A stretch of 64,000 nucleotides of DNA from Candidatus Omnitrophota bacterium (GCA_020632555.1 JACKFI010000001.1:133152-197151); one strand, 5' to 3'. Positions 20,755 through 64,000 are shown, counted from the first letter of the stretch. The notes: a model not told the origin generated them from the letters alone. A program made the numbers and translations.

Positions 20755-20777
20755 AGATAACTCTCCTTATCAGCTGA

Positions 20778-21773: not shown

Positions 21774-21945
21774 GATAAATTCCTCTCTGGTCTAGGCATA
21801 ATTGGGCCAAGGTCCCCCTACCAAAAAATAATTGGGTCCCATCTTTTCCTTATTGATTGTTCTCTTTGAAGGCTCTTGCTCAACAAAACAATCTTTGCAA
21901 TTTATACCGTGCAACTTTGCATAAATTGTTTGCGCTAATCTTTTT

Positions 21946-32306: not shown

Positions 32307-32602
32307 TTCTTTCTCCTTTTGTTTTTAAAAGTTCTGTCTTAAAAAAATTGTAGAATCGCAGTGGAGGTTGTTGACCTGCAAGACGGCTTTTCTACGAGCA
32401 ACTTTCTTAAGACAGAACGTGGGGATTTGAACCCCTCGGATTACTCCTTGACCAGGGCGAGCGTTTATCTGCAAAATGATATGGCCGATGCCATGTCATC
32501 GCACTGGATTCGCTCGCATATTTTTTTATCCCAATTTTTGCTAAAGGATTTTGCTTTTGGTAAATTGGGATTACGCAAATTTTTTCTATCGAAAATCTGC
32601 CT

Positions 32603-34120: not shown

Positions 34121-34243
34121 TTGTTTTTCCCTTATATTGCCCCTTTCCTTTATCGTTGCTTAAAGCATACCCTATCCAAAGCCAAATGTCAAATTTATTT
34201 TTATTTTCTTGTATAAATGTTTATCCTGTGATATATTTATACC

Positions 34244-38730: not shown

Positions 38731-38804
<74 letters not shown>

Positions 38805-45974: not shown

Positions 45975-47996
45975 TTAAGGACGATGTTGAAGTTTTTTCT
46001 CGAGGGTTTGCAATTGCAGTTCAATTTTTTCAAAGGTCTGATCTTGTAAGCGCATTTGATTGTTCTGCTCTTTGAGCGCGCCGGTTAGAACCGCGGTAAT
46101 GCCCATCGGATCAACACTTCTGCGACCTTCTTCAGCGACGAACTCCGGAACATCTTCGGCAATAAACCCGACGTGATGTTCCTCATGATTGACTTTATAA
46201 TTATAAGTCACAGGCTGCAATTCTTTGACCACTTCTAAAGCTTGGCGGGTATCTAATGGATAGATATGCTCTTTATACTCGCGGCTGGATAAAGTCATCC
46301 ACGTTCCAACATCGTCCAAATGCGCATTATTACCAAAATGCAAAGGGTAGGCCGGATCAGGTCGTCCAACACCAATTCGACCATTATTTTTAACCATAAA
46401 AATATCTCCAGCGGTTGCGGAGTTCTGTGAAGTCACAGCAAAAAAATCGTCCCCATTATTAATTTTTATATCTAAAATCGCACTGGGCGCAGTGTTACGA
46501 ATACCGAATTTGGGATTATTGGTACTGGGCGCAATAATAAACGCATCCGAGGCTGAAATCGAAACAGCTGATATGGAATACCCCCACACAAAAGATCGAT
46601 TTGCGCTATTAATCAAATTCATATAACGTCCTCCTGCCCATGAATAATCGCCCAAAACCGTATTATTTCGACCATTGCTAATGACTGAATAATTTCCTGA
46701 AACATCATTATTCACACCACCAACAACTATTGAAGAACGTCCAGCCCTATTATTAGCCCCTCCCCAAATAACCGCATAATCCCCAGATGTCACATTTCCT
46801 GTTCCACCCATAATCGCCGACCAAGAGCCATTAACTGTATTGCTCCTGCCTCCATCAATCACTGAATACAAACCATTCGCGGTATTGGTCAATCCTCCCG
46901 CAATAAATGAATAACTCGCCAACGCATTATTTGATTGCCCCCCGCCGACCACAGCATAAGGACCAGCTGAATTTTGACAACCGCCACTGACCACAGAATA
47001 AATACCGGGATCGTGATGCAATGTGCCGCCGGAAATAGTAAAATAATCGGCCGCAACAGTTTTGGTCGGATCCGTTAAACAATTTGGAAAAACCCATTGC
47101 GCATTATTACTACTGCCGCCGGTGATCGTCGCACCGACTCCTGCCGCAACATTACAAGAACCACTAAAAACAACATTATAATCATTTCGTGTTTGGCTTG
47201 ATTCTCCACCGACAACAGAAGCTCTCCCCTGCACATCACTTCGCTCACCCCAATTGACAGCATACTGACTGAAAACATCTGTTTTTAAACCGCCCAAATT
47301 AGCTGAATAATCTCCGGAAGCTTTTGAATACCGTCCAAATGCAACTGCAGCTAACCCACTGGCCTTAATATTGTCTTTACCTAAAGCAATTGAATAATCG
47401 CCAATATTGCCATCATTCCAAGCATCGGAAAAATCTTCTTCCCCCCAAAAATGCGTTAAATGTCCAACACGAAAAGCCGCTTTACGAGGATACCAAATCA
47501 TTTGCACCGCCCCTTCAAAACTAGACTCAGCAATAGCAGGCAAGTCAGGCAAAAGTTGGCCACTGCCCAATTGCCCCATCGCTAAAATACCGCCATCATT
47601 TTCTAAAGTCAGCTTGAATTCCGGAACAGTCGTGCCAATACCCACAAAAATATTGGGATTGGTGACTATCGCAGTTGGAAAAACATCATTGCCCGACTGG
47701 GTCCAAGAGCTTTCCAACAATGTCCATTGTCCATTTCCACTGCCATCATCAAAACAATAATGCAATTGATCTGTCCCCTGCTTAACAGACAATGTCCCAA
47801 GCGCACAAGGGGTGGATAATACTTGCGGCAATAAAGTCACTCGATCATAAGCGCCTTGCGGTGCCGGATAATATGTCGTTAATGTAAGACTCTCAGCCAA
47901 CGCAGACAAAGAACTCAATACAATCAAAGCGACGCTGATCGCCCCAATTTGAATTGAGCGTAAAAAACCATCGTCTCTGTGCTGAGCCTTTTGCAT
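45975..47996 (-). CDS. Secreted phage-tail-fibre-like protein, paralog 1 (N-terminal YYPAP module, ASGxYS/GG beta-repeats, C-terminal S74-type intramolecular chaperone domain)
   Basis: Signal peptide. N-terminal TYYPAPQGAYDRVTLLPQ…YC…VGIGT…KLTL…WYPRKAAFR. Over 15 tandem (A)SGxYSxxxGGxxN repeats. C-terminal SSREYKEHIYPLD…VTYNYK…HVGFIAEDVPEFV…MGITAVL plus a coiled-coil tail. Confidence 0.7.
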   Translation of the reverse strand: MQKAQHRDDGFLRSIQIGAISVALIVLSSLSALAESLTLTTYYPAPQGAYDRVTLLPQVLSTPCALGTLSVKQGTDQLHYCFDDGSGNGQWTLLESSWTQSGNDVFPTAIVTNPNIFVGIGTTVPEFKLTLENDGGILAMGQLGSGQLLPDLPAIAESSFEGAVQMIWYPRKAAFRVGHLTHFWGEEDFSDAWNDGNIGDYSIALGKDNIKASGLAAVAFGRYSKASGDYSANLGGLKTDVFSQYAVNWGERSDVQGRASVVGGESSQTRNDYNVVFSGSCNVAAGVGATITGGSSNNAQWVFPNCLTDPTKTVAADYFTISGGTLHHDPGIYSVVSGGCQNSAGPYAVVGGGQSNNALASYSFIAGGLTNTANGLYSVIDGGRSNTVNGSWSAIMGGTGNVTSGDYAVIWGGANNRAGRSSIVVGGVNNDVSGNYSVISNGRNNTVLGDYSWAGGRYMNLINSANRSFVWGYSISAVSISASDAFIIAPSTNNPKFGIRNTAPSAILDIKINNGDDFFAVTSQNSATAGDIFMVKNNGRIGVGRPDPAYPLHFGNNAHLDDVGTWMTLSSREYKEHIYPLDTRQALEVVKELQPVTYNYKVNHEEHHVGFIAEDVPEFVAEEGRRSVDPMGITAVLTGALKEQNNQMRLQDQTFEKIELQLQTLEKKLQHRP

Positions 47997-48011
47997 ATTT
48001 TTATCCCTGTC

Positions 48012-50006
48012 TTATTTCTCTAACCTTGTCCGCAATACTTTAATTCTTTCTTCAATCAGCTGAATCTTGTGTTCCCGTTGTTCAATTTCAGATTGTTGAT
48101 TTTGAACAACCTTGGTTAAAACGGCAACAATATCCATTGTGCTCAAAGTTTTGCGGTCTTTAACCGCAACTAAACTCGGAACATCTTCGGCAATAAATCC
48201 AATATTCGTATGATCAGGATCATTTTTATATTCAAATGTAACCGGATTTAATTGCTCAAAAGCTTGCTGGGCATCTGCTCCTGTCAGCGGAATAATATTT
48301 TCTTTAAGCTTGCGGCTAGATCCATTTTCCCAGGATCCTCCAGAACTCACATAAGCCCCATTGCCAAACTCCATTGCATAAGTAGGATTTGTTGGCATTA
48401 TTTTTTGGCTGCCAATATAACCATTTCTTTTCACAATAAAAACATCCCCAGAAGTTATTTTTCCCAAAGCCAAGAAATTATCAGCAGTTCCGTTGGCATT
48501 AACTTCTAAAACACCAACCGGATTAGTATCCCTGATCCCAACTCTGGGATTCCAAACAACTCCGCCAATCGTTCCCGGCGCAATAATAAATGCATCCGGC
48601 ACAACAATAGAAACCGCTGTATCAGAATATCCCCACGCAAAAGTTCGCTGCGCGGTACTTGTCAAATTCATAAAACGTCCCCCAGCCCAAGAATAATCGC
48701 CATCTACTATATTGTCCGTCCCACCCATGATCGTAGAATACCCGCCGTAAGCTCTGTTTCGCTCACCCCCCGCGATCACAGAATAATTATAGCTAGCATC
48801 ATTTTGCCACCCACCACCTATAATCTGGCCGAAACCTCCGCGAATCACATTCGTGCGTCCACTAGAAATAAACGAATACCTATTACCAGTTAAAATGGAA
48901 TTGCTGTCCCCACCGGAAATTCGCACATATTCACCAGCTGGACTAAACACAGAAACGTATTCACCGGTTTTATTCGCCAAGCCACCGCCAATGCTTGAAT
49001 AAGGTCCCTCAACAATATTGCCCTCACCCCCCAAAACAATAGAATAATCAGATCTGACTTTATTGTCCTTACCCCCACCAATCAGCGAATACCCCGTCGG
49101 AACACCAAAATCAGTAAAATCAATTAAATTATTAAAACCACCATTGATGTTTGAATATGGAATTGTGACACGATTTTGTGCCCCGCCGGCAACAACACTA
49201 TAAATCGCAGTGGCCTGATTATCTAAACCCCCAAGAATCGCAGAAAAATCTCCGGAAACCACATTGTTTTCTCCACCCCAAAGTGCCGCATATCGACCAC
49301 TGGCCATATTGTCCTTGCCACCGCCAACCGCTGAAAAATCCGCACTGGCCGTGTTCCTAAATCCACTGCCAACCACAGAATATAATGCACTGGCAATATT
49401 TCCATCGCCGCCGCCGATAGCTGAATAATGTCCACTGGCCCTTGTATTCTTTCCAAAAGCCGTGGAATAATTGCCGATATTCCCATTGTCCCATTGAGCC
49501 CCATCAACATAACCGGCGCGAATCGCGGCTTTACGCGGATACCAAATAAACCGGCTGCCCGCTCCTAAATTCGGCAAGGTCGCGCCACTGCCAAATGTCC
49601 CCTTAGCCATAATCCCGCCATCTTTTATTAAAGTCAGTTTTGAATCCGGCGTGTTGGTCCCAATCCCAACACGCAATAAAGGATTGCTCAAAGTATCTTT
49701 CAAATAAATATCATCATTCGTTTGCATCCAAACATCACTAAGCGCTTCCCACGCACCATTACCGCTGCCATCATTGTGACAATACTGAAGACTCCCCAAA
49801 GAATTCACATACAAAGATCCAATCGGACAAGCCGCAGTCAAGTCTGCGCGTGGCAGTAAACGAAAAGTGTCATATTCCCCTACCAATGAAGGATAATAAA
49901 TATCCATTTTCATTTCTGGGCTCGCCTGCGCAACGGGGACAAACACAAATCCCGTACAAATGAGGAGAAGAATTAGGAAAAGTTTTTTTGAATTATTTAT
50001 CATCAT
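48012..50006 (-). CDS. Secreted phage-tail-fibre-like protein, paralog 2
   Basis: Same architecture: DIYYPSLVGEYDTFRLLPR N-terminal module, beta-repeats, C-terminal SSRKLKENIIPL…NIGFIAEDVPSLV…MDIVAVL. 15-bp gap to paralog 1. Confidence 0.7.
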   Translation of the reverse strand: MMINNSKKLFLILLLICTGFVFVPVAQASPEMKMDIYYPSLVGEYDTFRLLPRADLTAACPIGSLYVNSLGSLQYCHNDGSGNGAWEALSDVWMQTNDDIYLKDTLSNPLLRVGIGTNTPDSKLTLIKDGGIMAKGTFGSGATLPNLGAGSRFIWYPRKAAIRAGYVDGAQWDNGNIGNYSTAFGKNTRASGHYSAIGGGDGNIASALYSVVGSGFRNTASADFSAVGGGKDNMASGRYAALWGGENNVVSGDFSAILGGLDNQATAIYSVVAGGAQNRVTIPYSNINGGFNNLIDFTDFGVPTGYSLIGGGKDNKVRSDYSIVLGGEGNIVEGPYSSIGGGLANKTGEYVSVFSPAGEYVRISGGDSNSILTGNRYSFISSGRTNVIRGGFGQIIGGGWQNDASYNYSVIAGGERNRAYGGYSTIMGGTDNIVDGDYSWAGGRFMNLTSTAQRTFAWGYSDTAVSIVVPDAFIIAPGTIGGVVWNPRVGIRDTNPVGVLEVNANGTADNFLALGKITSGDVFIVKRNGYIGSQKIMPTNPTYAMEFGNGAYVSSGGSWENGSSRKLKENIIPLTGADAQQAFEQLNPVTFEYKNDPDHTNIGFIAEDVPSLVAVKDRKTLSTMDIVAVLTKVVQNQQSEIEQREHKIQLIEERIKVLRTRLEK

Positions 50007-50008
50007 AT

Positions 50009-51943
50009 TTACTCAAAGTGCCTGTTTAATTGCTCTAGCTCATTTAATAAATCTTCACTTTTTTGCTTCTGTTGCTCAATTTTCTCTTGTTGATAAGCAA
50101 CAACCTTGGTTAAAACCGCAGCAATATCCATTGGGGCTAATCCTTGGCGTTGTTTTTGAACAACCAAAGCAGGAACATCTTCGGCAATAAAACCAACATA
50201 TTCTTCATCTTTTTGTAATTTATAATTAAACCGTACCGGATTTAAACCACGCAATGTTTCTAAAGCTTGATCCAGGTCCAAAGCCGTAATATTTTCTTTA
50301 TATTCACGACTTGATGAAGGCATGAATTTACCACTGGCATCAACATAGGCACCGTTACCAAAATCCATAATGTATTGCGGATTACTCTTATTAACCCCAA
50401 TGCAACCATTGCAACTGCCGCCTTTCTTGATGGTAAAAATATCACCCACAACAGAACTAGAGTTGCTGGTAAAGTTTAAATAATCATCCGCAGAATTATT
50501 GCCATTAATTTCCAACCCAGCGGCAGGAGTTATATCGCGAATACCCATTCTGCCAGAATAAATGATAAAAGCATTGGCTGTCGAAATATCTGCAGGCGCT
50601 GCAGAATATCCCCACAAAAAAGTATTATTAGCCCCAGTGGTCAATCTCATATTTCGACCAGCAACAAATGAATATGGGCCAACAATAGAATTATCAGCCC
50701 CACCGGCAATCATCGAACAATCAGAAGCCGCCTCAACCCTATTGAGCTTACCCCCCATAACCGTTGCATAAGGACTCAAAACGCCATTGTCTTCTCCTGC
50801 GCCAATCACAGAATAATCCTGACTCACAGTATTTCTATGCCCACCACCGACGACCGAATAAAGACCCTGAACAAGATTATCACTGCCGCCGGCAATAACC
50901 GAATACTGTCCAGAAATAACATTTGACTTCCCACCGGAATTAACAGAATATGAAGCGCTGGACGAATTTAAATGCCCCCCCGCAATAACAGTCCGATCCG
51001 TTACATTGACAAAGGTGTTGGCCCGACCGCCGCTAATGACCCCATAACTGCTAACCTGACTTGGCGAAAAAGAATTATCCCCACCACCTGAAATTATTTG
51101 ATAATCATAATAAGTCTTATTATTGTTCCCACCCGCAATAATTCTAAAACGAGAATAATTATCCGACCCGCGCGGGTGAGAATTATCTCTCCCTCCGCCG
51201 ATATCAGACCACACGTCCCCCGCACTATTATTAAAACCGGCTAGTCCTCCCTCCCAACAATCATCACGGCAAACATTGTTTTCTCCACCAAGAATAATTC
51301 CGCCCTTAGCTGCATTCGATTTACCTCCTAAAATCATTCCCCATCTGGCATCGTTATTCTCGCCACCTAAAACAAACATCCCTCTGCTGCCATATCCCAT
51401 AACTACACTGCCTGGATCAATATTCCCAACATCCCATTCATTCCCGGCAGCATACCCGGAACGAAAAGCTTTTTTCGATGGAATCCACATCAAGCGCGTA
51501 CCGGCTCCCGCAGTAACTAAGGCTGTCCCACTGGCCCAACTGGGCGTAAACCATCGCGATAAAATTCCACCATCACCGGCGAGCGTTAACTTAAACTGCG
51601 GCATCATTGTTCCAATCCCAACTTTTTTAGCTGCTGGATTCGTCGTATCGGCAAGATGGAGATTGTCTCCTGTCAATACCCACGTACCAGAGACAAGCAC
51701 GTATTTAGAAAACGGAGTGTCCTTAACACAATAATAAAGTCTGCCTAGGTCTGTCGCATTGGCATACAATGTACCAACAGGACAATTTGTATTTGGAGTA
51801 ATAGCTGGCTGAGGATTTAATCTGAGTTTGCTGTAATTTCCCGTTGGAGCAGGATAGTAGGACGTCATTTCCAAACCGCTGCAAGCTGCACAGGCGATAA
51901 ACGCGAACGAAAAAAACAAATATGCTGAAAATATTCTTCGCAT
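50009..51943 (-). CDS. Secreted phage-tail-fibre-like protein, paralog 3
   Basis: Same architecture: TSYYPAPTGNYSKLRLNPQ module, repeats, C-terminal SSREYKENITALD…YVGFIAEDVPALV…MDIAAVL. 2-bp gap to paralog 2 (operon). Confidence 0.7.
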   Translation of the reverse strand: MRRIFSAYLFFSFAFIACAACSGLEMTSYYPAPTGNYSKLRLNPQPAITPNTNCPVGTLYANATDLGRLYYCVKDTPFSKYVLVSGTWVLTGDNLHLADTTNPAAKKVGIGTMMPQFKLTLAGDGGILSRWFTPSWASGTALVTAGAGTRLMWIPSKKAFRSGYAAGNEWDVGNIDPGSVVMGYGSRGMFVLGGENNDARWGMILGGKSNAAKGGIILGGENNVCRDDCWEGGLAGFNNSAGDVWSDIGGGRDNSHPRGSDNYSRFRIIAGGNNNKTYYDYQIISGGGDNSFSPSQVSSYGVISGGRANTFVNVTDRTVIAGGHLNSSSASYSVNSGGKSNVISGQYSVIAGGSDNLVQGLYSVVGGGHRNTVSQDYSVIGAGEDNGVLSPYATVMGGKLNRVEAASDCSMIAGGADNSIVGPYSFVAGRNMRLTTGANNTFLWGYSAAPADISTANAFIIYSGRMGIRDITPAAGLEINGNNSADDYLNFTSNSSSVVGDIFTIKKGGSCNGCIGVNKSNPQYIMDFGNGAYVDASGKFMPSSSREYKENITALDLDQALETLRGLNPVRFNYKLQKDEEYVGFIAEDVPALVVQKQRQGLAPMDIAAVLTKVVAYQQEKIEQQKQKSEDLLNELEQLNRHFE

Positions 51944-55126: not shown

Positions 55127-56927
55127 TTTTTTTCTCTGCCTGGTTAAGGTAATTTTCTACCGCTTTTAAATTCATATCCCCATCAAACTTTTCTTGAGCT
55201 TTTGCCAATACCGTCCGCGCTTGCGGCAAATCACCGGCCTCAATGTTAATATGTATCACAAAAACATAAGCCAGTACCGATTGAGAATCAACTGCCATGG
55301 CCTGCAAAGCACAATCTTTTGCCGACACATAATCTTTTTTAATCAAATAATTCCTCGAAAGCTCCAAATACAATCCCGAAAAACCGGGAGCCAACTCAAT
55401 GGCTTTCTTCAAATAACCAATCGCGGCGTCGGGAGTAGCAGCCGCTTTACTTAGAAGATGATAAGTCATAAATTTTTCTTTGTCACTGGAAATAAACGGA
55501 TTATTCATCGCGACTTTAAGATGTTGTGTAAGATATTTAACCGCCTGCGGCGAATGACCTGCCAAATAACTATCCAAGCCTAAAATCCAATACGGGCGAG
55601 AACTATCCGGATACCGGCGAATCATTTCGCGGCAAGCCACAAAATTATTTCTAAAGAAATCATTATTGGCAATGGTTAAAATAATCAAAAACCCTGTCCA
55701 AACTCCTGGCAATATCAATCTCATGTTCAACGTAATATGTCGTCGAGTAAACCACTGCGCAAGATGGTCTATACCAATCGCAAATAACAAAAAAAATCCA
55801 ATCGACGGCAAATACAAGAAACGAAATGCTAAAGGATTAAGCAAAGGAAAGATCCCAGAAGCCGGGAAATAATTGACAAAAAACCACACAAACCCAAAAG
55901 TAATAATTTTATCGCGTCGAAAAAAATTAACGGCTAAAATTATGGACAATAAGCTAACAACCAACGGCACCATCAATTCCCAAATCGGCATTGGAAAAAT
56001 TGGCGGGGCATACAAGGGAGGAAGAACAGAAACTTTAAACGGCAAAACCAGCGCCACGCAGTACTGTAAGAAAAGTTTAAGCATCAAGACAATTTGCGCT
56101 AAACCTTTTAAAGCATAAGGCGAAGGCTGTAAATAAAATACATTAGGAATTAAAATGAAGTACACACATAAATAAAAGATCGTGATTCCAGCCAAAACCG
56201 CGTAAAGCCCCTTCTTTTGACCAAGAATCTGTCGACCCTTTTGCGCTGAAAGAAAGAACCAGTCGACAATAAAAATAATAAATGGAAAAGTTACTGCTGT
56301 TTCTTTTGAAAACAAAGCCAAAAAATATGACACTCCGACAAGACCAAACCAGAGGCCTTTTCTTTTAGCCTCACTAAAGCGCGCATAAGCTAAAACCGCG
56401 CACAAATAAAACATCGTCATCAAAATATCCGAACGATACCCGCTGGCATTGACAACTTCCGACTGAATTGGATGGACTGCGAAAAAACTTGCCGCCCAAA
56501 AAGCTATTTTTTTATTGCCGGAAATCCGCAGGATAAAATAAAAAACCAAAATGCAGGTCAAAAAATGAAGAAATATATTACTAAAATGATGCCCCGTCGG
56601 ATTGTTCTTCCATAAAGCGTAATCTATAAAAAAGGTCGCAGCGCTAACCGGACGATAAGAAACGCACCCGGAAAAAGATTGAGTCTTTTGTGAAGCATCA
56701 TAAGTCGACGGATTCATGACCAAATCTTGTGAGAAAATCTTTGGGAAATTGGTCAGACTTTTATAAAATTCATTGCCGCTAAAAAGAGCCTTGTCGTCGC
56801 CAACAAAGTCATTTTGCAAACAATTGTGAAAAGCGGCTGCAACAAAAAGCGCTAAAAGAAAAATAATTAATCGATTGGTGAAGGGAATTTTTGTGAAGGA
56901 AAAATTTTTCAAGGCACGAAGAATCAA
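55119..56927 (-). CDS. TMTC-like membrane glycosyltransferase (GT-C + TPR), paralog B
   Basis: 602 aa. Same architecture as paralog A. Overlaps it by 8 nt (operon). Confidence 0.65.
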   Translation of the reverse strand: MILRALKNFSFTKIPFTNRLIIFLLALFVAAAFHNCLQNDFVGDDKALFSGNEFYKSLTNFPKIFSQDLVMNPSTYDASQKTQSFSGCVSYRPVSAATFFIDYALWKNNPTGHHFSNIFLHFLTCILVFYFILRISGNKKIAFWAASFFAVHPIQSEVVNASGYRSDILMTMFYLCAVLAYARFSEAKRKGLWFGLVGVSYFLALFSKETAVTFPFIIFIVDWFFLSAQKGRQILGQKKGLYAVLAGITIFYLCVYFILIPNVFYLQPSPYALKGLAQIVLMLKLFLQYCVALVLPFKVSVLPPLYAPPIFPMPIWELMVPLVVSLLSIILAVNFFRRDKIITFGFVWFFVNYFPASGIFPLLNPLAFRFLYLPSIGFFLLFAIGIDHLAQWFTRRHITLNMRLILPGVWTGFLIILTIANNDFFRNNFVACREMIRRYPDSSRPYWILGLDSYLAGHSPQAVKYLTQHLKVAMNNPFISSDKEKFMTYHLLSKAAATPDAAIGYLKKAIELAPGFSGLYLELSRNYLIKKDYVSAKDCALQAMAVDSQSVLAYVFVIHINIEAGDLPQARTVLAKAQEKFDGDMNLKAVENYLNQAEKKND

Positions 56928-56951
56928 ATTTTAATGAAACATCAAAAAACA

Positions 56952-57024
56952 AGCTGGCGGTCAGGGTTGAACTGACGGCCTGCGCATTACGAATGCGCTG
57001 CTCTACCGACTGAGCTACGCCAGC
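56952..57024 (-). tRNA. tRNA-Thr (anticodon CGU)
   Basis: Minus strand reads GCTGGCGTAGCTCAGTCGGTAGAGCAGCGCATTCGTAATGCGCAGGCCGTCAGTTCAACCCTGACCGCCAGCT. Anticodon loop TTCGTAA. No encoded CCA. Confidence 0.85.
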
Positions 57025-57490
57025 GAATTACCTTAAAATAATCAAAACAAACCTTAAGAAAAATTCGCCAGTACTGTTTTCCTTATATCTTTTTACAGAA
57101 AAAACAGTGCGCCAGCAAACTTCCACTAAACTTACAAAATTTACCCTTAGAACAGTTTGCCAGTACTGCCTTCTACTTTTACTATCTTGAGAAGGCATGT
57201 ACGCCAGCGAATTACCTTAAAATCATCAAAACAACCTTAAGAAAAATTTGCCAGTACTGTTTTCCTTATATCTTTTTACAGAAAAAACAGTGCGCCAGCA
57301 AACTTCCACTAAACTTACAAAATTTACCCTTAGAACAGTTTGCCAGTACTGCCTTCTACTTTTACTATCTTGAGAAGGCATGTACGCCAGCGAATTACCT
57401 TAAAATCATCAAAACAAACCTTAAGAAAAATTTACCAGTACTGTTTTCCTTATATCTTTTTACAGAAAAAACAGTGCGCCAGCATTTACA
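57017..57490. repeat. ~183-bp tandem repeat x 2.6; each unit begins with the first 8-10 nt of tRNA-Thr (ACGCCAGCG)
   Basis: Unit starts at 57017, 57201 and 57384, >95% identical. Each unit contains the internal inverted repeat ACTGTTTT…AAAACAGT and two GCCAGTACTG boxes. Confidence 0.7.
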
Positions 57491-57503
57491 TCAAATTTTT
57501 CGC

Positions 57504-57650
57504 GGGAAACCGGGACATCACCCACCGAACAACATTGCACCAAACTAAAAAAAAAGAATGGTGCCGAGACTAAGGGATTGTTGTGGGAAACCGGGATTTC
57601 ACCCACCGAACAACAAAGCACCAAACTAAAAAAAAGAATGGTGCCGAGAC
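57504..57650. repeat. ~81-bp tandem duplication; each copy ends with the last 12 nt of tRNA-Phe (TGGTGCCGAGAC, i.e. ...GTCTCGGCACCA)
   Basis: 57504-57570 vs 57585-57650. The second copy's end is the genuine tRNA 3' end. Confidence 0.65.
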
Positions 57651-57714
57651 CCGGAATTGAACCGGGGACGCACGGCTTTTCAGGCCGTCGCTCTACCGAC
57701 TGAGCTATCTCGGC
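57639..57714 (-). tRNA. tRNA-Phe (anticodon GAA), CCA encoded
   Basis: Minus strand reads GCCGAGATAGCTCAGTCGGTAGAGCGACGGCCTGAAAAGCCGTGCGTCCCCGGTTCAATTCCGGGTCTCGGCACCA. Close to E. coli tRNA-Phe. Confidence 0.88.
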
Positions 57715-57973
57715 ACAACTGCTGCTACAAATAAAAGGTTGCTACCTTAGAAGTTTTGCTTTGAATAGCTTTTGTCCCGCTTGCGGGACTGAGCTACTCA
57801 AGCGTTTGCATCTAAATCTTTTCTGAGAAAACGCCAGTGCCGCACAATTAGCGGCGCTCGGCACAACTATCTTTTAAGATATTAAATCCAAATCAAAGAC
57901 CAGTGATTCTATCCAACCTCATCCCAAATGTCAACCGCGAAAGCCCACAACGACCACCGCGACACAATCACAA

Positions 57974-58375
57974 CTACGGATGCGACCGTTGAACAATCTT
58001 GGTATAAATATCCTGAGCTAATTTAATTCTTGGCATCATGCCCCGACGAGCTTTGACTCGTAGTTTTACAGTATCTGCGACCGGTTCAGCCACTGTCACC
58101 GTAATATGAGCCCCAGAAACCTTAGCAACAACCACTCCGGCAATTTCATTCTTCTCTTCAATCAGCCCCATAATGGATACTGTATCAACCGCGGCCTGCC
58201 AAATATCCTGCATGGTATATCCACTGACCATGCCCTCAACCGTGTCTGGACTAATCGCATAACCGCCCAAAGCCCCGACGCCGCCAATTACCAAATAAAA
58301 ACAGCCACTGCCGGTCAATAAAAATAAAACCAACGCTATCGAAAAAAAACTTTTCTTAACAGAAAACCTTTCCAC
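57974..58375 (-). CDS. Small lipoprotein (DUF3568-like)
   Basis: Lipobox LLTGSGC. 133 aa. Confidence 0.45.
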   Translation of the reverse strand: MERFSVKKSFFSIALVLFLLTGSGCFYLVIGGVGALGGYAISPDTVEGMVSGYTMQDIWQAAVDTVSIMGLIEEKNEIAGVVVAKVSGAHITVTVAEPVADTVKLRVKARRGMMPRIKLAQDIYTKIVQRSHP

Positions 58376-58562
58376 CCTTTATCTCCCAACCAAATGAGCA
58401 ATCCATTACAGCGTCAAGATTTTTGCTTATCCCTTGCAAGGCTTACGGCCATGATTGGCTTTTTTTGATCGCCAATTCAATTTGCCAACTTTACTTTTAC
58501 GTCCCATTCTGATCCCCTCCTTAATAATTTAAGGTACCATCGTACTACGCGACACGAAAAAA

Positions 58563-59216
58563 TCAAAGCAAAAATTTTCTCACCTGATAAACATTCTCAA
58601 CTACGGCCAAAGGCTTTAAAGCTGTTAATTCTGCAATTGTACTGGAACCTGTTGCTACCGCTACGGTTTTAACTCTCGCCCGCCGGCCGGTCAAAACATC
58701 AATCCCCATATCTCCCACATAGAGAGCTTGAGACGGCTTGAGCTTAAACTTCTTTAAAATCGCCTTAAGAATATCCGCCGCCGGCTTAGGACGCGCCACC
58801 TTATCCCCACATAAAACATAATCGAAGAAAATATTGATTTTTAAATACCTTATCGCAATCAGCGAAAACTTAGTCGGGCGATTGCTGGCCACTGCGATTC
58901 TTAATCCTTGCGCCTGCAAATATTGTAGAATTTTCAACGCGCCCGGCAATAGCTTGGTATCTTTGCGCAAAGCTAAAGCATGATGCTGTCGATAAACACT
59001 CAGCGCTCGGTCAATATCTTTGTCTCCGATTTTGTCCCCCAGAAAAGACTGCAACAAATGCCGGTCACCCCAACCCACTGTGCGTTTAATCGTCGAGTGC
59101 GCAATTGGGGCAAAACCAAATTTATCGACGGTATAATTGACACTGCGATAAACCGCCGGATAAGCGTTCATCAAAGTCCCATCAAGATCAAAAACAACAA
59201 GTTTGATTTTTTTCAT
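58563..59216 (-). CDS. HAD-superfamily hydrolase (subfamily IA, phosphoglycolate-phosphatase-like)
   Basis: Motif I VVFDLDGTL, motif III/IV …VGDMGIDV…. Confidence 0.8.
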   Translation of the reverse strand: MKKIKLVVFDLDGTLMNAYPAVYRSVNYTVDKFGFAPIAHSTIKRTVGWGDRHLLQSFLGDKIGDKDIDRALSVYRQHHALALRKDTKLLPGALKILQYLQAQGLRIAVASNRPTKFSLIAIRYLKINIFFDYVLCGDKVARPKPAADILKAILKKFKLKPSQALYVGDMGIDVLTGRRARVKTVAVATGSSTIAELTALKPLAVVENVYQVRKFLL

Positions 59217-59376
59217 AGTCGAATATTATAATTTAGAAATATTTTAGAAACTCATCTTATCATCGATTAACTAAATTGCTTGCCTTAGTGCTACAATTTT
59301 ATTTCGATGCTAAGACAAAAAAATCCCGCATGCCGATTTTCCAACATGCGGGATTGTGACGCAATGACTAATGAAC

Positions 59377-62300
59377 TTACAACTTGGGCGAAAGAACAAT
59401 AACGCCAGATTTTACAGTACTGGTATCCTGATCTTGCGGATAAGCCGCAACAACCGTATCTCCACTTAAAGCAATACTCTGCCCAAAATTGAGAATACCG
59501 GCTCCTGCTAAATTATACGCCCAGGCAAAAGAATTATTGGCCTGACGTTTAAAAACAATCACTGAATCCGTTGTATGTATCGAACCTAACGAGAAGGTTT
59601 TAGGATGCATCGCAACGGCGACAGTATTGTCTTTGGCCGTAAGGCTGATAATCGCACTGCTCGAATGCCACGGCAAGCTTAAGCGAGAATACGATGTATT
59701 CCACGTGCTAACCGGCGCTCCATACGGAGCATTGCGCATTTCATTAAAAATAAAAACATTACTCAAAAGAGTAATATCAGGAACAGCACTCAACGCAACA
59801 ATAAGCTGATGACCAACAACCTTGGTTGCCGTCAAAACAGCCTCAGCATTCTGCGGCGTTAATAACCCTATCTCTTGACCAAAATTAGCTATATCGTTTT
59901 CATACGTTTTTTCTAATGTCCAGAGACCTTGTCCTTTGTAACGATAGATAAAGATTTTACTCTTTTCGGTTTCCGAAGCTTTGGGCGCGCCAACTGCAAT
60001 AATCCCATCACCGACAGCTACCGATTGAGCAAATTGAACTTTACCAGCTTCCACTCCAGACAACTTCAATGTGGCCGCATAAGCCCATGCACCATTGTTA
60101 CGACTGATCACATACACAACTTTAGCCGACGGTAAAGAAACCGCCAAGCTGTCTGACGAAAGAGCCAGTTTCATATTACTAACTAAAGCTGGATCTAAAT
60201 TATCAATTTTACTAAGATCCAATTTATTGCCAGCTTGAACCCAAGCATTATTAACTTTGGAGAAAAAATAAAGACTGCTCTGCGCTTGCACAACCAACGC
60301 ATCTTTATTAGCCGCCAAAGTCTTGCCAAACTGATCACCATCTGCCAAACCTACAGGCGCGATAATCGCGGGCACAGGCACAGACTGTGTTGCATCAACA
60401 GGCATGCTCTTATATTGATAAACAACACCTTTGCCATTAACACTAGGGGCTCCGACGAATAATTCATTGCTCTCTTGCAAAACAGCAACGCTTTGCGCAA
60501 AACCAATGTTAAACTGCGGCGTTGCCAAACGGCCTGCTGACAGATTATCCAAATTGCTATAATACTCACCAACCGTGATTTTATCAGCTGGCTTTTTTAT
60601 AGCAGCAATAAATGAATCCATCACAAATTTTGCTTTCGCAGGATCTTTTAATGCCCAAATATTTTGAAAATACTTATTCATTGCATACTTTGTGTTCCAA
60701 AGCATTTTACTATCATAATAGTTACCAACGTTTGTTTTATCTGCCGGATTAAGAACTACGGCTATAATGGATTCCATCACAAACTTCTCTTTGGCAGGAT
60801 CCTTCGCCTGCGCCAAAATCGAAACATAACTATTGATTGCCGCTTGAGCTTTAAGCACAGCCGTTTGATCATAATACTGCCCAATTGTGGTTTTATCCGC
60901 AGGATTTAAAACTGTGGCCAACAATGATGTCATCACAAACTTCGCCTTAGCTGGATCTTCGTTCCCAGCCGATAAAACTGTGAAATAATTGTCAATCGCG
61001 ACTTTCGCTTTTGTCACCGCCACTTGATCCAAATACTGACCAATTGCGGTTTTGTCGGCAGGATTTAAAACTGTGGCCAACAATGATGTCATCACAAACT
61101 TCGCCTTAGCTGGATCTTCGTTCCCAGCCGATAAAACTGTGAAATAATTGTCAATCGCGGCTTTCGCTTTTGTCACCGCCACTTGATCCAAATACTGACC
61201 AATTGCGGTTTTGTCGGCAGGATTTAAAACTGTGGCCAACAATGATGTCATCACAAACTTCGCCTTAGCTGGATCTTCGTTCCCAGCCGATAAAACTGTG
61301 AAATAATTGTCAATCGCGGCTTTCGCTTTTGTCACCGCCACTTGATCCAAATACTGACCAATTGCGGTTTTGTCGGCAGGATTTAAAACTGTGGCCAACA
61401 ATGATGTCATCACAAACTTCGCCTTAGCTGGATCTTCGTTCCCAGCCGATAAAACTGTGAAATAATTGTCAATCGCGGCTTTCGCCTTTGTCACCGCCAC
61501 TTGATCCAAATACTGACCAATCGCGGTTTTGTCGGCGGGATTTAAAACCGTCGCAATCACTCTATCCATAACCAATTTTGCATTAACTGGATTTTGTACC
61601 GCAGCCAATAAAACCTGAAAATAATTATCAATTGTAATTTTAGAATTTGTTACCGCAGATTGATTGTAATAATCTCCAACAATCGCTTTTTCTGCAGGAT
61701 TCAAAACTGCAGCAATAGCCGAATCCATCGCCAGTTTTGCTTGCGCTGGATTTTTGGTAACAATCAACAATGTCGCAAAATAATCATCAATCGCAGCTTT
61801 AGCTTTATTAACAGCCATCTGAGACATTCCAATGCTGTAATAATTTGCAACAATGGTTTTGTCAGCAGCATTAAGAACCGTCGCCATTACAGCCTCCATA
61901 ACAGCTTTTGCCGTTGCTGGATTTTGCCCAGCGGCCAAAGCAGAAAAATAATTATCAATCGCAACTTTGGCCTTCACAATAGCTGTTTGGCCGTAATAAT
62001 TATTAACAATAAGTCTATCCGATGGATTAAGAACCGCCGCCATAGCGGCTTCCATGACAGTTTTCGCTATTGCTGGATTTTGCGCAGCCATCAAAGCAGA
62101 AAAATAATTATCAACCGCAGCTTTGGCCTTCACAATAGCCGTTTGGCCGTAATAATTATTAACAATAAGTTTATCTGATGGATTAAGAACCGCCGCCATA
62201 GCGGCTTCCATGACAGTTTTCGCTATTGCTGGATTTTGCGCAGCCATTAAAGCAGCAAAATACTTATCAATCGCCGCTTTGGCCTTCACAATAGCCGTTT

Positions 62301-63051
62301 GGCCGTAATAATTATTAACAATAAGTCTATCTGATGGATTAAGAACCGCCGCCATAGCGGCTTCCATGACAGTTTTCGCTATTGCTGGATTTTGCGCAGC
62401 CATCAAAGCAGCAAAATAATTATCAACCGCCGCTTTGGCCTTCACAATAGCTGTTTGGCCGTAATAATTACTAACAATAAGTTTATCTGATGAATTAAGA
62501 ACCGCCGCTATAGCGGCTTCCATGACAGTTTTCGCTATTGCTGGATTTTGCGCAGCCATCAAAGCAGCAAAATACTTATCAATCGCAGCTTTGGCCTTCA
62601 CAATAGCTGTTTGGCCGTAATAATTACTAACAATAAGTTTATCTGATGGATTAAGAACCGCCGCCATAGCGGCTTCCATGACAGTTTTCGCTATTGCTGG
62701 ATTTTGCGCAGCCATCAAAGCAGCAAAATAATTATCAACCGCCGCTTTGGCCTGAATAATAGCTGTTTGACCATAATAATTATTCACGATAGATCTATCT
62801 GCCGTGTTAACTACGGCAGCCATGGCCTGATCCATTGCAACCTTAGCTGCTGATGGATTCTGTCCACTCAACAAGACGCTAAAGTAATTGTCAATAGCCA
62901 CTTTAGCAGCTTCGACAGAAGTCAACTGCACTGCTGTCCCCACACTTGAACTTTGAGCATACACCATACTGGGCAATGCCAGCATGCCAAAACCAGCGCA
63001 CGCTCCCAACAATACAACAACAACCTTCTTAACCAAACTCTTTCGATTCAT
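59377..63051 (-). CDS. Large secreted repeat protein: ~20 tandem 48-aa alpha-helical repeats + C-terminal FG-GAP (integrin-alpha-like beta-propeller) repeats
   Basis: Signal peptide. Repeat unit NYYGQTAIVKAKAAVDNYFAALMAAQNPAIAKTVMEAAMAAVLNPSDKLIV. C-terminal QFGKTLAA, FAQSVAVGDG, FGQEIGL, FGQSIALSGD (FG-GAP-like). Confidence 0.7.
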   Translation of the reverse strand: MNRKSLVKKVVVVLLGACAGFGMLALPSMVYAQSSSVGTAVQLTSVEAAKVAIDNYFSVLLSGQNPSAAKVAMDQAMAAVVNTADRSIVNNYYGQTAIIQAKAAVDNYFAALMAAQNPAIAKTVMEAAMAAVLNPSDKLIVSNYYGQTAIVKAKAAIDKYFAALMAAQNPAIAKTVMEAAIAAVLNSSDKLIVSNYYGQTAIVKAKAAVDNYFAALMAAQNPAIAKTVMEAAMAAVLNPSDRLIVNNYYGQTAIVKAKAAIDKYFAALMAAQNPAIAKTVMEAAMAAVLNPSDKLIVNNYYGQTAIVKAKAAVDNYFSALMAAQNPAIAKTVMEAAMAAVLNPSDRLIVNNYYGQTAIVKAKVAIDNYFSALAAGQNPATAKAVMEAVMATVLNAADKTIVANYYSIGMSQMAVNKAKAAIDDYFATLLIVTKNPAQAKLAMDSAIAAVLNPAEKAIVGDYYNQSAVTNSKITIDNYFQVLLAAVQNPVNAKLVMDRVIATVLNPADKTAIGQYLDQVAVTKAKAAIDNYFTVLSAGNEDPAKAKFVMTSLLATVLNPADKTAIGQYLDQVAVTKAKAAIDNYFTVLSAGNEDPAKAKFVMTSLLATVLNPADKTAIGQYLDQVAVTKAKAAIDNYFTVLSAGNEDPAKAKFVMTSLLATVLNPADKTAIGQYLDQVAVTKAKVAIDNYFTVLSAGNEDPAKAKFVMTSLLATVLNPADKTTIGQYYDQTAVLKAQAAINSYVSILAQAKDPAKEKFVMESIIAVVLNPADKTNVGNYYDSKMLWNTKYAMNKYFQNIWALKDPAKAKFVMDSFIAAIKKPADKITVGEYYSNLDNLSAGRLATPQFNIGFAQSVAVLQESNELFVGAPSVNGKGVVYQYKSMPVDATQSVPVPAIIAPVGLADGDQFGKTLAANKDALVVQAQSSLYFFSKVNNAWVQAGNKLDLSKIDNLDPALVSNMKLALSSDSLAVSLPSAKVVYVISRNNGAWAYAATLKLSGVEAGKVQFAQSVAVGDGIIAVGAPKASETEKSKIFIYRYKGQGLWTLEKTYENDIANFGQEIGLLTPQNAEAVLTATKVVGHQLIVALSAVPDITLLSNVFIFNEMRNAPYGAPVSTWNTSYSRLSLPWHSSSAIISLTAKDNTVAVAMHPKTFSLGSIHTTDSVIVFKRQANNSFAWAYNLAGAGILNFGQSIALSGDTVVAAYPQDQDTSTVKSGVIVLSPKL
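60600..62940. repeat. Intragenic 144-bp tandem DNA repeats (two subfamilies; several copies 100% identical)
   Basis: e.g. identical 144-bp units through 60990-61500 and a second subfamily through ~61930-62760. Confidence 0.7.
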
Positions 63052-63402
63052 ATAAACTCTCCTGTAAAATTAGTTTTCATTGAATATTTAAAAAAACTTA
63101 AGCATCAAAGGTTAATGCTTGGTCGCCAAACCACGCCAGATCCATCGATTGTTATATAGGGAAGGGTGCAACAGGTGATTTAGCTTGAAGGCTCCATTTA
63201 AGGAAGCTTGAATCTTAACCAATGATCCTAAAGTCTTACTAGAAGCACAGGACTCTGAAAAAGAGCATTGAAATCATTACGTCAAATGTAACATGCCAAT
63301 TGAAAATTGGCAAATTAATTTGACTAACCCAAAAATCTGATATTAAGTGATTAATTAACACAAAAAACAACCCTAGAAAAGGGCTGAGAAATGGGTGCTT
63401 TG

Positions 63403-63588
63403 CTACTTTTGCAGCAAATACAAAATCAACAAACCGCCCAGAGCCAACAAAACGCCAATAAATCCGCGAAAAACGACCATTACATCATTCCACCACAACA
63501 AAACCAAGGTTATACCCGCAATCATCACTGATAACCCAAGAATAAAACGCAGAATCTTGCCAAATGTGGATGATGACTTAGGCTGCAT
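63403..63588 (-). CDS. Small membrane protein (2 TM), start placed at internal Met
   Basis: MQPKSSSTFGKILRFILGLSVMIAGITLVLLWWNDVMVVFRGFIGVLLALGGLLILYLLQK. The longer ORF would overlap the acyltransferase gene. Confidence 0.35.
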   Translation of the reverse strand: MQPKSSSTFGKILRFILGLSVMIAGITLVLLWWNDVMVVFRGFIGVLLALGGLLILYLLQK

Positions 63589-64000
63589 AATCAGACTCCT
63601 TATCCGTCTGTCGATTTTCAGGCACCTGCGTCTTCCACCGCCTGTGCATCCAGCCCCATTCATGCGGATATTTGCGAATATATCCTTCAATGATTTTTGT
63701 AATCTTGGCGACATTGGCAACAATCATCTCTTGGCTATCTTCACGCTGTTCCAATTGCATTTCCGGTTCAATGGCAATTTTATTAACATCATCTTCTTGA
63801 CGGCGAATAAAAATCGGCACAATCGGAGCCCCGGCTCTTTGCGCTAAAACAATCGGACCCGGCGCGGTTGCCGCTTTTTGTCCAAAAAAATCAACAAAAA
63901 CTCCGCCGCTGCTGCCAAAATTTTGATCCATTAAAATAAACACAATCTCATTATTACGCAAAGCTTTGAGCGTATCCATCACGGCTTTTTTGCGCGGCAA
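63578..64000 (-). CDS. Lysophospholipid/lipid-A-type acyltransferase (LPLAT family), C-terminal part; N-terminus beyond window
   Basis: Partial CDS running off the window end. C-terminal …IRKYPHEWGWMHRRWKT… resembles LpxL/HtrB-type acyltransferases. Confidence 0.5.
   Translation of the reverse strand: MPRKKAVMDTLKALRNNEIVFILMDQNFGSSGGVFVDFFGQKAATAPGPIVLAQRAGAPIVPIFIRRQEDDVNKIAIEPEMQLEQREDSQEMIVANVAKITKIIEGYIRKYPHEWGWMHRRWKTQVPENRQTDKESDYAA

Follow-up and report, generated by a model that had tools for sequence, protein, structure and literature searches.

Ebh (EbhA) of Staphylococcus aureus is a FIVAR-GA protein in which a long helix joins adjacent helical bundles into a rod. Ebh and the DUF1542 proteins FmtB/Mrp and SasC are giant secreted proteins made up of tandem helical bundles with near-identical repeats. 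A 1224-aa protein of Omnitrophota, here termed the stalk protein, likewise appears to be secreted and composed of tandem helical bundles, and its repeats are also near-identical. The Ebh unit is 126 aa, whereas that of the stalk protein is 52-53 aa. The Ebh host is Gram-positive and the Omnitrophota host is diderm; the stalk protein also has a C-terminal head and lacks a membrane or cell-wall anchor. The Pfam families FIVAR, GA, and DUF1542 have no match in the stalk protein at E <= 1, and comparison of its array with the solved Ebh repeats gave no structural match.

Spectrin-type repeats are serial three-helix bundles in which the last helix of each repeat passes without a break into its successor, generating an elongated spacer. 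The same arrangement is predicted here. A spectrin repeat has ~106 aa and three long helices, while the Omnitrophota unit is half that size and has one short middle helix. Spectrin repeats are also eukaryotic and cytoskeletal, whereas the stalk protein is bacterial and has no match to Pfam Spectrin.

The staphylococcal domains Sbi-IV, Efb-C, and Ehp and the protein A/GA-type modules are single three-helix bundles that share only 7-10% identity with the unit. All of these are separate ligand-binding domains on linkers, whereas the Omnitrophota units would be fused through continuous helices.

Integrin alpha propellers are made up of seven FG-GAP blades, as is the predicted head of the stalk protein, at 13-15% identity. 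The integrin propeller joins thigh/calf domains, whereas the Omnitrophota propeller joins a helical rod and lacks the Dx[DN]xDG Ca2+ loops. Located in blades 4-7, these loops mark the classical FG-GAP (integrin) propellers and not those of PF14312. No D.[DN].[DN]G or D.D.D motif is present in aa 834-1224. Hundreds of bacterial FG-GAP_2 (PF14312) proteins match the propeller at E 1e-16 to 1e-6.

Streptococcal Alp/Rib, staphylococcal SasG/Aap, and the M-like proteins are encoded by in-frame, near-identical DNA repeats that are homogenized by recombination. Repeat number differs between close strains, which alters the length of the stalk. The stalk gene shares the in-frame, near-identical, recombination-homogenized repeats, and a difference in repeat number is seen in a family member. 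The Alp/Rib, SasG/Aap, and M-like proteins have repeats that are either rich in beta structure (Rib, G5-E) or form dimeric coiled coils, and they are LPXTG-anchored in Gram-positives, whereas the stalk protein is a predicted helical-bundle rod from another phylum with no anchor found.

The stalk gene, its predicted export signal, and the probable C-terminal head

The window is the whole 64,000-nucleotide stretch of Candidatus Omnitrophota DNA that was analyzed. The stalk gene is a single complete open reading frame within it, with the following features.

63285..63313, minus strand: candidate sigma-70-like promoter, TTGCCA-17-TACATT with an upstream TG (consensus matches only)
8 nt before the ATG, minus strand: candidate Shine-Dalgarno sequence AGGAG (consensus match only)
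59377..63051, minus strand: coding sequence, 1224 aa plus stop, identical to NCBI MCB9756969.1 (hypothetical protein, Candidatus Omnitrophota MAG)
62956..63051, minus strand: signal peptide, aa 1-32 (MNRKSLVKK-VVVVLLGACAGFGMLALPSMVYA, cut before QSS), read from the sequence
59380..60552, minus strand: linker and predicted seven-bladed FG-GAP_2/integrin-alpha-like beta-propeller, aa 834-1224 (Pfam, alignment, AF2, Foldseek)
59322..59355, minus strand: predicted intrinsic terminator, 15-bp stem with 7 GC pairs and a T-run

With its own promoter-like site, putative ribosome-binding site, and terminator, the gene is judged to be real. The terminator starts 22 nt past the stop codon, so the gene is taken to be monocistronic. 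An LpxL-like gene adjoins it; no secretion-system or partner gene was found among the neighbors. The host is diderm, as judged by its LpxL and Lnt genes.

The N-terminus is of the Sec type, and residues 6-30 are the sole hydrophobic stretch of the protein. Signal peptidase I is predicted to cut after VYA, and the A-x-A context followed by Q is kept in five family members. The motif LLGAC could be read as a lipobox with its Cys at C18. This reading was rejected since the orthologue has LLGAY, with no Cys, and the hydrophobic residues run on to the conserved A-x-A/Q site. A search of the protein for an anchor found no conserved lipobox, no transmembrane segment after the signal peptide, no C-terminal sorting signal, no beta-barrel, and no Cys in the C-terminal domain.

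The C-terminal domain of ~390 aa scores 27.9 bits against Pfam FG-GAP_2 (PF14312; gathering cutoff 23), and aa 1188-1210 pass alone. In an alignment with single-domain FG-GAP_2 proteins, seven blades fall into register, though several have degenerate motifs, e.g., FAQ for FG, and blades 3, 5, and 6 are irregular. The AF2 model of this region (pLDDT 82, pTM 0.76) is all-beta from model residue ~113. The best Foldseek matches in the PDB are the propellers of integrins alphaV, alpha5, alphaL, and alphaX (4mmx_A, 8vs6_A, 4um9_A, 9b9k_A, 7nxd_A, and 5e6s) with E 7e-10 to 1e-7 and probability 1.00. A sequence search with the domain gave 636 library matches at E <= 1e-3, mostly FG-GAP_2 proteins. A short flexible linker would be followed by a propeller that is most likely the ligand-binding head, its fold being predicted and its function inferred.

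These results agree with the initial annotation, which had placed a 1224-aa reading frame at 59377-63051 and described a secreted protein with a helical stalk followed by an FG-GAP beta-propeller. The frame is one minus-strand ORF, the Sec-type N-terminus and the conserved V-Y-A/Q cleavage context support secretion, and AF2 and Foldseek support the architecture. Structure prediction of the C-terminal ~400 aa, which had been proposed as a check, returned the propeller.

The locus is best read, with fair confidence, as a monocistronic Omnitrophota gene encoding a secreted modular stalk-and-head protein, likely an adhesin or spacer. A surface role of this kind, suggested in the initial annotation, is plausible, although a search for an anchor found none. 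The Sec signal peptide would export the protein, and the rod may keep the binding head a defined but evolvable distance away from the cell or a partner. Omnitrophota are abundant, uncultured, and ultra-small (~0.2-um cells), and are predicted to have a host-dependent or predatory lifestyle, a prediction that rests largely on pili and on giant, poorly annotated proteins (PMC10066038). An adhesin or spacer would fit such a phylum.

A rather unlikely alternative is that the protein is not a cell-attached adhesin and is freely secreted or periplasmic. It could serve in the envelope as a spacer or ruler, be a bridging or matrix protein, or act as a soluble binder resembling a lectin, with the rod used for oligomerization or for spacing within the envelope. 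In a diderm cell, a Sec signal alone reaches only the periplasm, and the lack of both an identifiable anchor or sorting signal and of dedicated secretion genes nearby agrees with this; however, the rod, at an estimated 35-45 nm, would exceed a typical periplasm. FG-GAP_2 propellers are found in many otherwise uncharacterized secreted proteins, which also suits an unattached protein, but the repeat unit itself sits in obviously extracellular giants. It is inserted between FN3/CARDB domains in one protein (P0025) and is present in a giant protein with subtilisin, LamG, and Big_3_5 domains (P0030), and thus behaves as an extracellular spacer module. Polymorphism in unit number and an identity block centered on the gene, both described below, would likewise be usual for exposed proteins.

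The repeat array and its unit count

The N-terminal two thirds of the stalk protein are a tandem array with the following parts.

60553..62925, minus strand: array of 15 tandem units, aa 43-833 (unit comparison, 15 unit-HMM matches, AF2 on units 7-10)
61990..62769, minus strand: subfamily A, units 2-6, 156 bp each, 94-97% mutual nucleotide identity
60868..61503, minus strand: subfamily B, units 10-13, 159 bp each
61002..61485, minus strand: perfectly periodic stretch, 484 bp or 3.04 identical units (325-bp exact repeat, offset 159 bp)
60553..60711, minus strand: unit 15, a divergent junction unit, 45% identical to its best sibling and 57% to the last unit of the L003 orthologue

In order, the units are 52, 52, 52, 52, 52, 52, 56, 53, 53, 53, 53, 53, 53, 52, and 53 aa long. 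The DNA periods are 156, 159, or 168 bp (52, 53, or 56 aa), and the TRF scores of 1298 and 1549 are far above chance. The array is Ala-rich (21% Ala) and predicted to be helical. Within subfamily B, units 11 and 12 have the same sequence; there is a difference of 1 nt in unit 10 and of 7-8 nt in unit 13.

The initial annotation had proposed ~20 tandem repeats of 48 aa (144 bp). The tandem array stands, as does its Ala-rich helical character, but the count is 15 and the period is longer. Its figure of at least four consecutive identical units was too high, whereas the second near-identical subfamily, placed at ~61930-62760, corresponds to units 2-6. It had also warned of an assembly-collapse hazard and of a higher true count. 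The hazard is borne out by the 325-bp exact repeat; the higher count is not, as the JGI assemblies also have 15 units.

Short reads could settle the number of units everywhere except in the stretch 61002..61485. In a related MAG (GCA_964474085.1), the orthologue has a 100-N gap inside its array, making the array a documented assembly breakpoint.

It is improbable that the array is partly an artefact, with the subfamily B count collapsed or otherwise different and the 1224-aa length not real. The window sequence is from a MAG, and 484 bp of perfect periodicity with a 325-bp exact repeat is beyond typical short-read counting. In the JGI allele, by contrast, SNPs tell apart units 10, 11, 12, and 13, and the longest exact repeat is 166 bp. 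Exactly 15 units are encoded by three JGI contigs, the longest of 1.136 Mb, that derive from other samples and independent assemblies, so that the gene has 15 units and 1224 aa in all four available contigs (two alleles). The orthologue's assembly did break within its array, but the stalk gene contains no Ns and no frame disruption, and the 90%-identity cluster holds only 1224-aa members.

Predicted fold of the repeat unit

AF2 was run on units 7-10 with an alignment of sister units and relatives, giving pLDDT 92.5 and pTM 0.82. In the model, helices of 32-34 residues that span the unit borders alternate with helices of 12 residues. The prediction for every unit is a bundle of three helices, the third of which runs on as helix 1 of the unit that follows. 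Helix 3 being unbroken, the bundles would be staggered along one axis, and a stiff rod is predicted with high confidence.

The stalk would comprise residues 43-833, with an aromatic core in each unit contributed by Y-F in helix 1 and Y-Y in helix 3. Y14, F15, Y50, and Y51 are nearly invariant among 34 diverse units. At ~3 nm per unit, the rod may be roughly 35-45 nm long, an estimate based on helix lengths and not on coordinates.

The repeat unit has no Pfam, NCBIfam, or PDB match at accepted cutoffs. A Foldseek search of the PDB with the four-unit model gave no significant match, and a profile of the 34 units found nothing better than E 0.4 among all PDB sequences. The sole sequence-family match is NCBIfam NF047526 (LIC_10421 family), at 40.9 bits against a curated cutoff of 90, with four stretches summed over profile positions 20-65 of 111. 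Members of this family are small, uncharacterized Leptospira proteins, and the match is a lead for the repeat and not a relationship. Pfam HCBP_related, THP2, RNaseH_C, DUF6841, DPC2, and others were rejected as weak scores summed over 15 repeats, in which at best a poor stretch passes alone.

A curved alpha-solenoid scaffold for protein-protein interaction (TPR/HEAT-like), in place of an extended rod, is very improbable. Pfam TPR_14 does match at 24.4 bits, but weakly and summed over the repeats, and no single stretch passes individually. The boundary-crossing helices of 32-34 residues run in one direction and are joined by a single short antiparallel helix; the topology therefore propagates along the helix axis without hairpin stacking. 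Single units superpose on three-helix bundles at 2.5-3 Å, and Foldseek gives no solenoid at E <= 1e-3.

Evolution and distribution of the array

In the repeat region, 11 of the 13 differences between the window and the JGI allele are the base of a sister unit at the same offset, in short tracts. These allelic differences are conversion tracts. Internal units are 92-100% identical to their siblings and 54-62% identical to the orthologue's units, whereas the last unit is nearer to the orthologue's last unit than to its siblings. Unit 15 is the positional orthologue of the unit that closes the array in the L003 orthologue. The comparison shows, at the level of sequence, concerted evolution of the array, in which internal units are homogenized within the species and the last unit stays orthologous; recent expansion or ongoing concerted evolution had been suggested at the outset, and both are supported. 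Unequal homologous recombination and gene conversion between units drive the process, homogenizing internal units within a lineage, leaving edge units orthologous, and allowing unit number to change in frame.

Searches of genome contigs and metagenome contigs with the C-terminal domain found no more alleles of the stalk gene, and a 38-nt probe matched exactly to a junction added none. In a different genome, a family member (P0176/P0027/P0178) has 5, 6, or 9 units with 0 mismatches in the 8-kb flanks. The longest exact repeats of these alleles are 41-83 bp, below the assembler k of 141, and all three are intact ORFs. Their units have 202 synonymous and 98 non-synonymous differences (crude dN/dS ~0.14), which points to strong purifying selection on the unit protein sequence.

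Repeat-number variation, anticipated in the initial annotation, is seen in this family member and not in the stalk gene (four contigs, two alleles). The proposed phase variation is not upheld: near-identical tandem DNA repeats are recombination-prone and unit number does vary in the family member, but an ON/OFF contingency gene switched by repeat gain or loss is extremely unlikely given that every unit length (156, 159, and 168 bp) is divisible by 3, so that length changes while frame and expression do not, that the 5-, 6-, and 9-unit alleles are intact, and that TRF finds no short-period tract in 58000-64000 (promoter and 5' end included).

The stalk gene lies within a longer region of identity.

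59206..63900, no strand: ~4.7-kb block, 99.45% identical to the JGI genome (26 mismatches), found by sequence comparison

Beyond the block, divergence from the JGI genome is ~16% in the flank on the HAD side and ~9% in that on the LpxL side. The block is either a recombination tract centered on the stalk gene or a strain-chimeric assembly.

Among 1.84 billion representatives, the repeat unit occurs in some eight protein clusters, and all of those with an organism label are Omnitrophota. The repeat has not been described before and is unrecognized by the protein-family and structure resources searched. The combination of signal peptide, repeats, and propeller is also observed in P0002/L003, P0026, P0027, and P0157, with at least 9 units in the first and 5, 6, and 1 in the others, respectively. 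The orthologue was recovered with the C-terminal domain as query; with the full-length query, the repeats crowded the candidate list and the 99%-identical JGI copy alone was returned. P0032 and P0035, listed as relatives by HMMER, are false positives caused by low complexity, having 0 and 2 unit matches, the latter negligible, and two ~975-aa ORFs downstream of the L003 orthologue are unrelated to the stalk protein.

A broader and tentative proposal is that this Omnitrophota-confined repeat forms a staggered three-helix-bundle rod that acts as a tunable ruler. Units of ~3 nm would be gained or lost by unequal recombination in otherwise clonal populations, setting the reach of the integrin-like head, or of the enzymatic and binding domains of giant proteins, to host or prey. 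Successful alleles may also be exchanged between species-level lineages, as suggested by the 4.7-kb near-identical block centered on the stalk gene.

A repetitive stalk, size polymorphism, and concerted evolution are already known in other bacteria; the stalk protein adds another example, with a new fold variant, to biology of a familiar kind. The new helical module recurs in the giant proteins of Omnitrophota, and its annotation would explain stretches of them. The natural 5-, 6-, and 9-unit alleles in identical genomic backgrounds are a ready-made test of the importance of stalk length. Small, cleanly modular, and confidently modeled, the stalk protein is a tractable candidate for the attachment machinery of Omnitrophota.

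Architecture of the stalk-protein gene

The stalk-protein gene encodes a tandem repeat array followed by an FG-GAP_2 propeller. The gene and its flanking signals in the window are as follows:

59377..63051, minus strand, stalk-protein gene, a single ORF of 1224 codons
63386-63368, terminator-like hairpin of the upstream gene, before the stalk-protein gene
63313-63285, sigma-70-like site, candidate promoter of the stalk-protein gene
8 nt ahead of the stalk-protein ATG, AGGAG
59355-59322, strong terminator with a 15-bp stem and T-run, 22 nt past the stalk-protein stop

By its sequence, the gene appears to be a self-contained transcription unit. At 42.3%, its G+C content matches the window value of 42.0%. 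An identical protein is deposited at NCBI as MCB9756969.1 ('MAG: hypothetical protein H6753_00935 [Candidatus Omnitrophica bacterium]'). In a scan of species-representative genomes, the SecA of the window organism had its closest matches at 87-88% identity and the remainder, from Omnitrophota MAGs, at 56-68%, which points to Candidatus Omnitrophota as its phylum.

The tandem array is real and well past chance (TRF scores 1298 and 1549). The FG-GAP C-terminus also stands, as the last 391 residues match Pfam FG-GAP_2 at 27.9 bits against a gathering score of 23. The initial annotation described ~20 units of 48 aa (144 bp); the array is instead composed of 15 units (aa 43-833) of 52, 53, or 56 aa (156, 159, or 168 bp). 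Two independent routes, the conserved A-I-D-N-Y-F motif as an anchor and a unit HMM, give exactly 15, with lengths in order of 52, 52, 52, 52, 52, 52, 56, 53, 53, 53, 53, 53, 53, 52, and 53 aa. Ala makes up 21% of the repeat region. A second near-identical subfamily, also claimed earlier, is present as subfamily A (units 2-6, 61990-62769, 94-97% DNA identity). Subfamily B (60868-61503) spans units 10-13; two of these, 11 and 12, match at every nucleotide, with 1 nt separating unit 10 from them and 7-8 nt separating unit 13. The longest stretch repeated exactly is 325 bp, with an offset of 159 bp, and thus 484 bp (61002-61485) are perfectly periodic. This corresponds to 3.04 units, fewer than the four or more identical consecutive units first reported. 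All units are in frame, so "phase variation" is the wrong term for this array.

The genes around the stalk-protein gene are housekeeping. On the upstream side is an LpxL-like acyltransferase; on the downstream side are genes for a HAD hydrolase, TPR/PMT-like proteins, and an MFS transporter, together with two tRNAs. Functions encoded elsewhere in the window include alpha-glucan metabolism, enolase, FtsH, and RtcBA/RtcR. The RNA-repair cassette (30547-35842) is complete and contains RtcA (30547-31560), RtcB (32603-34120), and the divergently transcribed sigma-54 activator RtcR (34244-35842). An IS256-family (Transposase_mut) transposase gene (37347-38471, plus strand) lies in an otherwise housekeeping region and adjoins a tRNA (38731-38804). 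Four long plus-strand ORFs, 61660-62178, 60664-60909, 58980-59231, and 63395-63847, run antisense to real genes, two of them within the repeat array. Gene callers could mistake these shadow ORFs for genes.

Predicted structure of the stalk and head

Units 7-10 (aa 355-569) were modeled with AlphaFold2 from an alignment of 19 other four-unit windows taken from the protein's own units and its relatives (pLDDT 92.5, pTM 0.82). In the model, helices of 32-34 residues cross every unit boundary unbroken and alternate with 12-residue helices, so that each sequence unit supplies three elements: helix 1 (~18 aa, with a Y-F motif), a short antiparallel helix 2, and helix 3 (~14 aa, with a Y-Y motif). 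Helix 3 of one unit runs on into helix 1 of the following unit. The long helices necessarily all point in the same direction, and the topology therefore propagates along the helix axis. Across 34 diverse units, Y14, F15, Y50, and Y51 are nearly invariant, as expected of the bundle core. From the helix lengths, the rod would measure ~3 nm per unit and roughly 35-45 nm over 15 units.

A second AlphaFold2 model covers aa 729-1224 (alignment of 23 relatives; pLDDT 82, pTM 0.76). In it, two helical units are followed by a linker of low confidence and an all-beta propeller, to which the alignment assigns seven blades. Its best structural matches are the integrin alphaV, alpha5, alphaL, and alphaX propellers (E 7e-10 to 1e-7). 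A sequence check found no integrin-type Ca2+ loops in the propeller, and no cysteines or recognizable C-terminal anchor in the mature protein. The sole hydrophobic segment is the signal peptide. None of the neighboring genes checked encodes a secretion or anchoring partner adjoining the stalk-protein gene; across the protein sequence and the adjoining genes, neither an anchor nor an outer-membrane export route was found.

Distribution of the helical unit

When 1.84 billion cluster representatives were searched exhaustively with HMMER, 636 proteins were returned at E <= 1e-3, nearly all of which match the propeller only. The helical unit is found in about eight clusters.

Protein clusters related to the stalk protein that carry the helical unit
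P0002; orthologue in the MAG L003 (63-66% identity), length incomplete; signal peptide, at least 9 units, propeller
P0026; 769 aa; signal peptide, 5 units, propeller
P0027; 848 aa; signal peptide, 6 units, propeller, Cys-rich tail
P0157; 713 aa; 1 unit, propeller
P0024; 834 aa; signal peptide, 13 units, C-terminus of another kind
P0025; 1984 aa; 5 units between FN3 domains, six CARDB domains
P0030; 2578 aa; subtilisin S8, LamG, and Big_3_5 domains, 5 units of ~60 aa
P0029; 142 aa; fragment

The presence of the unit in such varied secreted architectures suggests that it behaves as a portable extracellular spacer module. The unit has no sequence match in Pfam, NCBIfam, or PDB, and the only hint is a sub-threshold match to the uncharacterized Leptospira LIC_10421 family (40.9 bits versus a cutoff of 90). 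The carriers with an organism label are all Omnitrophota: the window MAG, the L003 MAG, P0026, and P0030, the last assigned through a neighboring cytochrome b. Two further candidates, P0032 and P0035, were rejected as low-complexity false positives.

Contig L089 of an Omnitrophota MAG (NCBI GCA_021731625.1) carries two adjoining giant genes (8001-23505) for proteins of 2578 and 2501 aa, both with subtilisin S8, LamG, and Big_3_5 domains; five variants of the unit, each of ~60 aa, occur in the first. On L003, a prepilin peptidase (Peptidase_A24) gene (7284-8102) lies upstream of the orthologue. Directly downstream (11380-17363) are two paralogous secreted proteins of ~975 aa, which are 50% identical across the N-terminal 400 aa, have no Pfam domains, and are not related to the stalk protein.

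Array remodeling and the likely role of the protein

Arrays of this kind are prone to misassembly, as the initial annotation had warned. In the L003 orthologue (NCBI GCA_964474085.1, contig CAYYRJ010000028.1), a scaffold gap of 100 Ns interrupts the array (~9290-9390). Because of this gap, gene calling split the gene and yielded a truncated 625-aa protein whose start falls within a repeat. A 190-aa opposite-strand ORF called over the N-terminal repeats (8631-9203) is likely a shadow ORF. The true gene encodes a signal peptide and at least 9 units. Short-read ambiguity in the window is limited to the 484-bp periodic stretch. The 99%-identical JGI allele, carried by genome L002, has SNPs marking units 10-13, a longest exact repeat of 166 bp, and an unchanged unit count. 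The count of 15 is thus probably correct, and any other number is improbable.

Three contigs from JGI, the largest of 1.136 Mb, carry a 1224-aa allele; they come from two or more samples. In the two read as DNA, the stalk gene is identical and differs from the window by 20 nt with no indel. At 11 of the 13 differing array sites, the base matches that of a sister unit at the corresponding offset, and these changes form short tracts. Unit 5 takes the unit 6 state at five sites (offsets 26-53), units 10 and 11 the unit 13 state at offsets 128 and 131, and unit 12 the unit 13 state at offset 25. Such tracts are a signature of gene conversion. Internal units are 92-100% identical to a sibling, but against the units of the L003 orthologue their identity drops to 54-62%. 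The last unit is 57% identical to its L003 counterpart and 45% to its best sibling. This pattern is expected if unequal exchange homogenizes the interior and spares the edges.

Length polymorphism is observed in a family member represented by P0176, P0027, and P0178 (796, 848, and 1004 aa), which share the locus GroEL, IMPDH, GuaA, gene, DnaE, HU, HisS. The gene starts at 4001 on L084 (ENA ERZ27248668, 6 units), L085 (JGI 3300031524, 9 units), and L086 (ENA ERZ27249030, 5 units). Among the three assemblies, there are zero mismatches in the 4 kb upstream and the 4 kb downstream. The arrays are A-J-D-E-F in P0176, A-B-C-D-E-F in P0027, and A-B-G-H-I-C-D-E-F in P0178, and three recombinant units, G-H-I, seem to have been inserted in the 9-unit allele. 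Repeat collapse cannot explain these differences because the longest exact internal repeats (41-83 bp) are below the assembler k-mer of 141. Sister units with identical peptides have at least 9 synonymous-site differences. Sister units of this gene show 202 synonymous versus 98 non-synonymous differences (crude dN/dS ~0.14), an excess that indicates strong purifying selection on the unit protein sequence. In the window gene, units differ at few sites and the corresponding value is close to neutral (about 0.7), which fits very recent duplication or conversion.

The window from ~59,206 to ~63,900 is 99.45% identical to L002 (26 mismatches in 4.7 kb), a block that is centered on the stalk-protein gene and reaches across its promoter region into the 3' end of the LpxL-like gene. 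The flanks are 9-16% divergent and the edges are sharp, with 13-22 mismatches per 100 bp directly downstream (HAD gene) and 9 per 100 bp from 63,900 on. The block could be a recent homologous-recombination tract, in which the allele moved between lineages about 10-15% apart, or it could reflect a strain-chimeric metagenome assembly.

Two other regions differ from L002. The tRNA surroundings at 57400-58000 and 56800-57100 (tRNAs 57642-57714 and 56952-57024) have 41-66% column identity with many gaps, between sequences of 82-93% identity, and appear to be a local indel or rearrangement hotspot. A ~6-kb segment (45975-51943) between a PurN-like gene and the MFS transporter is missing from the otherwise syntenic L002. 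In this segment, three minus-strand ORFs (45975-47996, 48012-50006, and 50009-51943) encode tandem paralogues of 644-673 aa that are 34-37% identical and have signal-peptide-like N-termini. Each has a C-terminal Peptidase_S74 domain ("intramolecular chaperone of endosialidase / tail-fibre"), and a weak beta-roll match was recorded for one of them. In this cellular genome, the segment appears to form an island of tail-fibre-like proteins that varies between strains.

The best-supported reading of the window gene is a secreted stalk-and-head protein. The protein would be exported by Sec, its 15 fused three-helix bundles are predicted to form a stiff rod, and the predicted integrin-like propeller may serve as a binding head. 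Sequence comparison indicates that recombination remodels the length and sequence of the array. The principle of a repetitive stalk with concerted evolution and size polymorphism is familiar from Gram-positive surface proteins. New here are an undescribed, rare repeat family, so far restricted to Omnitrophota where the organism is labeled; a predicted fused-bundle rod topology without a solved counterpart; and the combination of this rod with an FG-GAP_2 head. Neither the repeat nor FG-GAP propellers are mentioned in PMC10066038 or in the giant-gene preprint (10.1101/2023.11.21.568195). Omnitrophota are ~0.2-um cells with host-dependent traits, and their large secreted proteins have been proposed as adhesins (PMC10066038). 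An adhesin or spacer role for the stalk protein fits this phylum.
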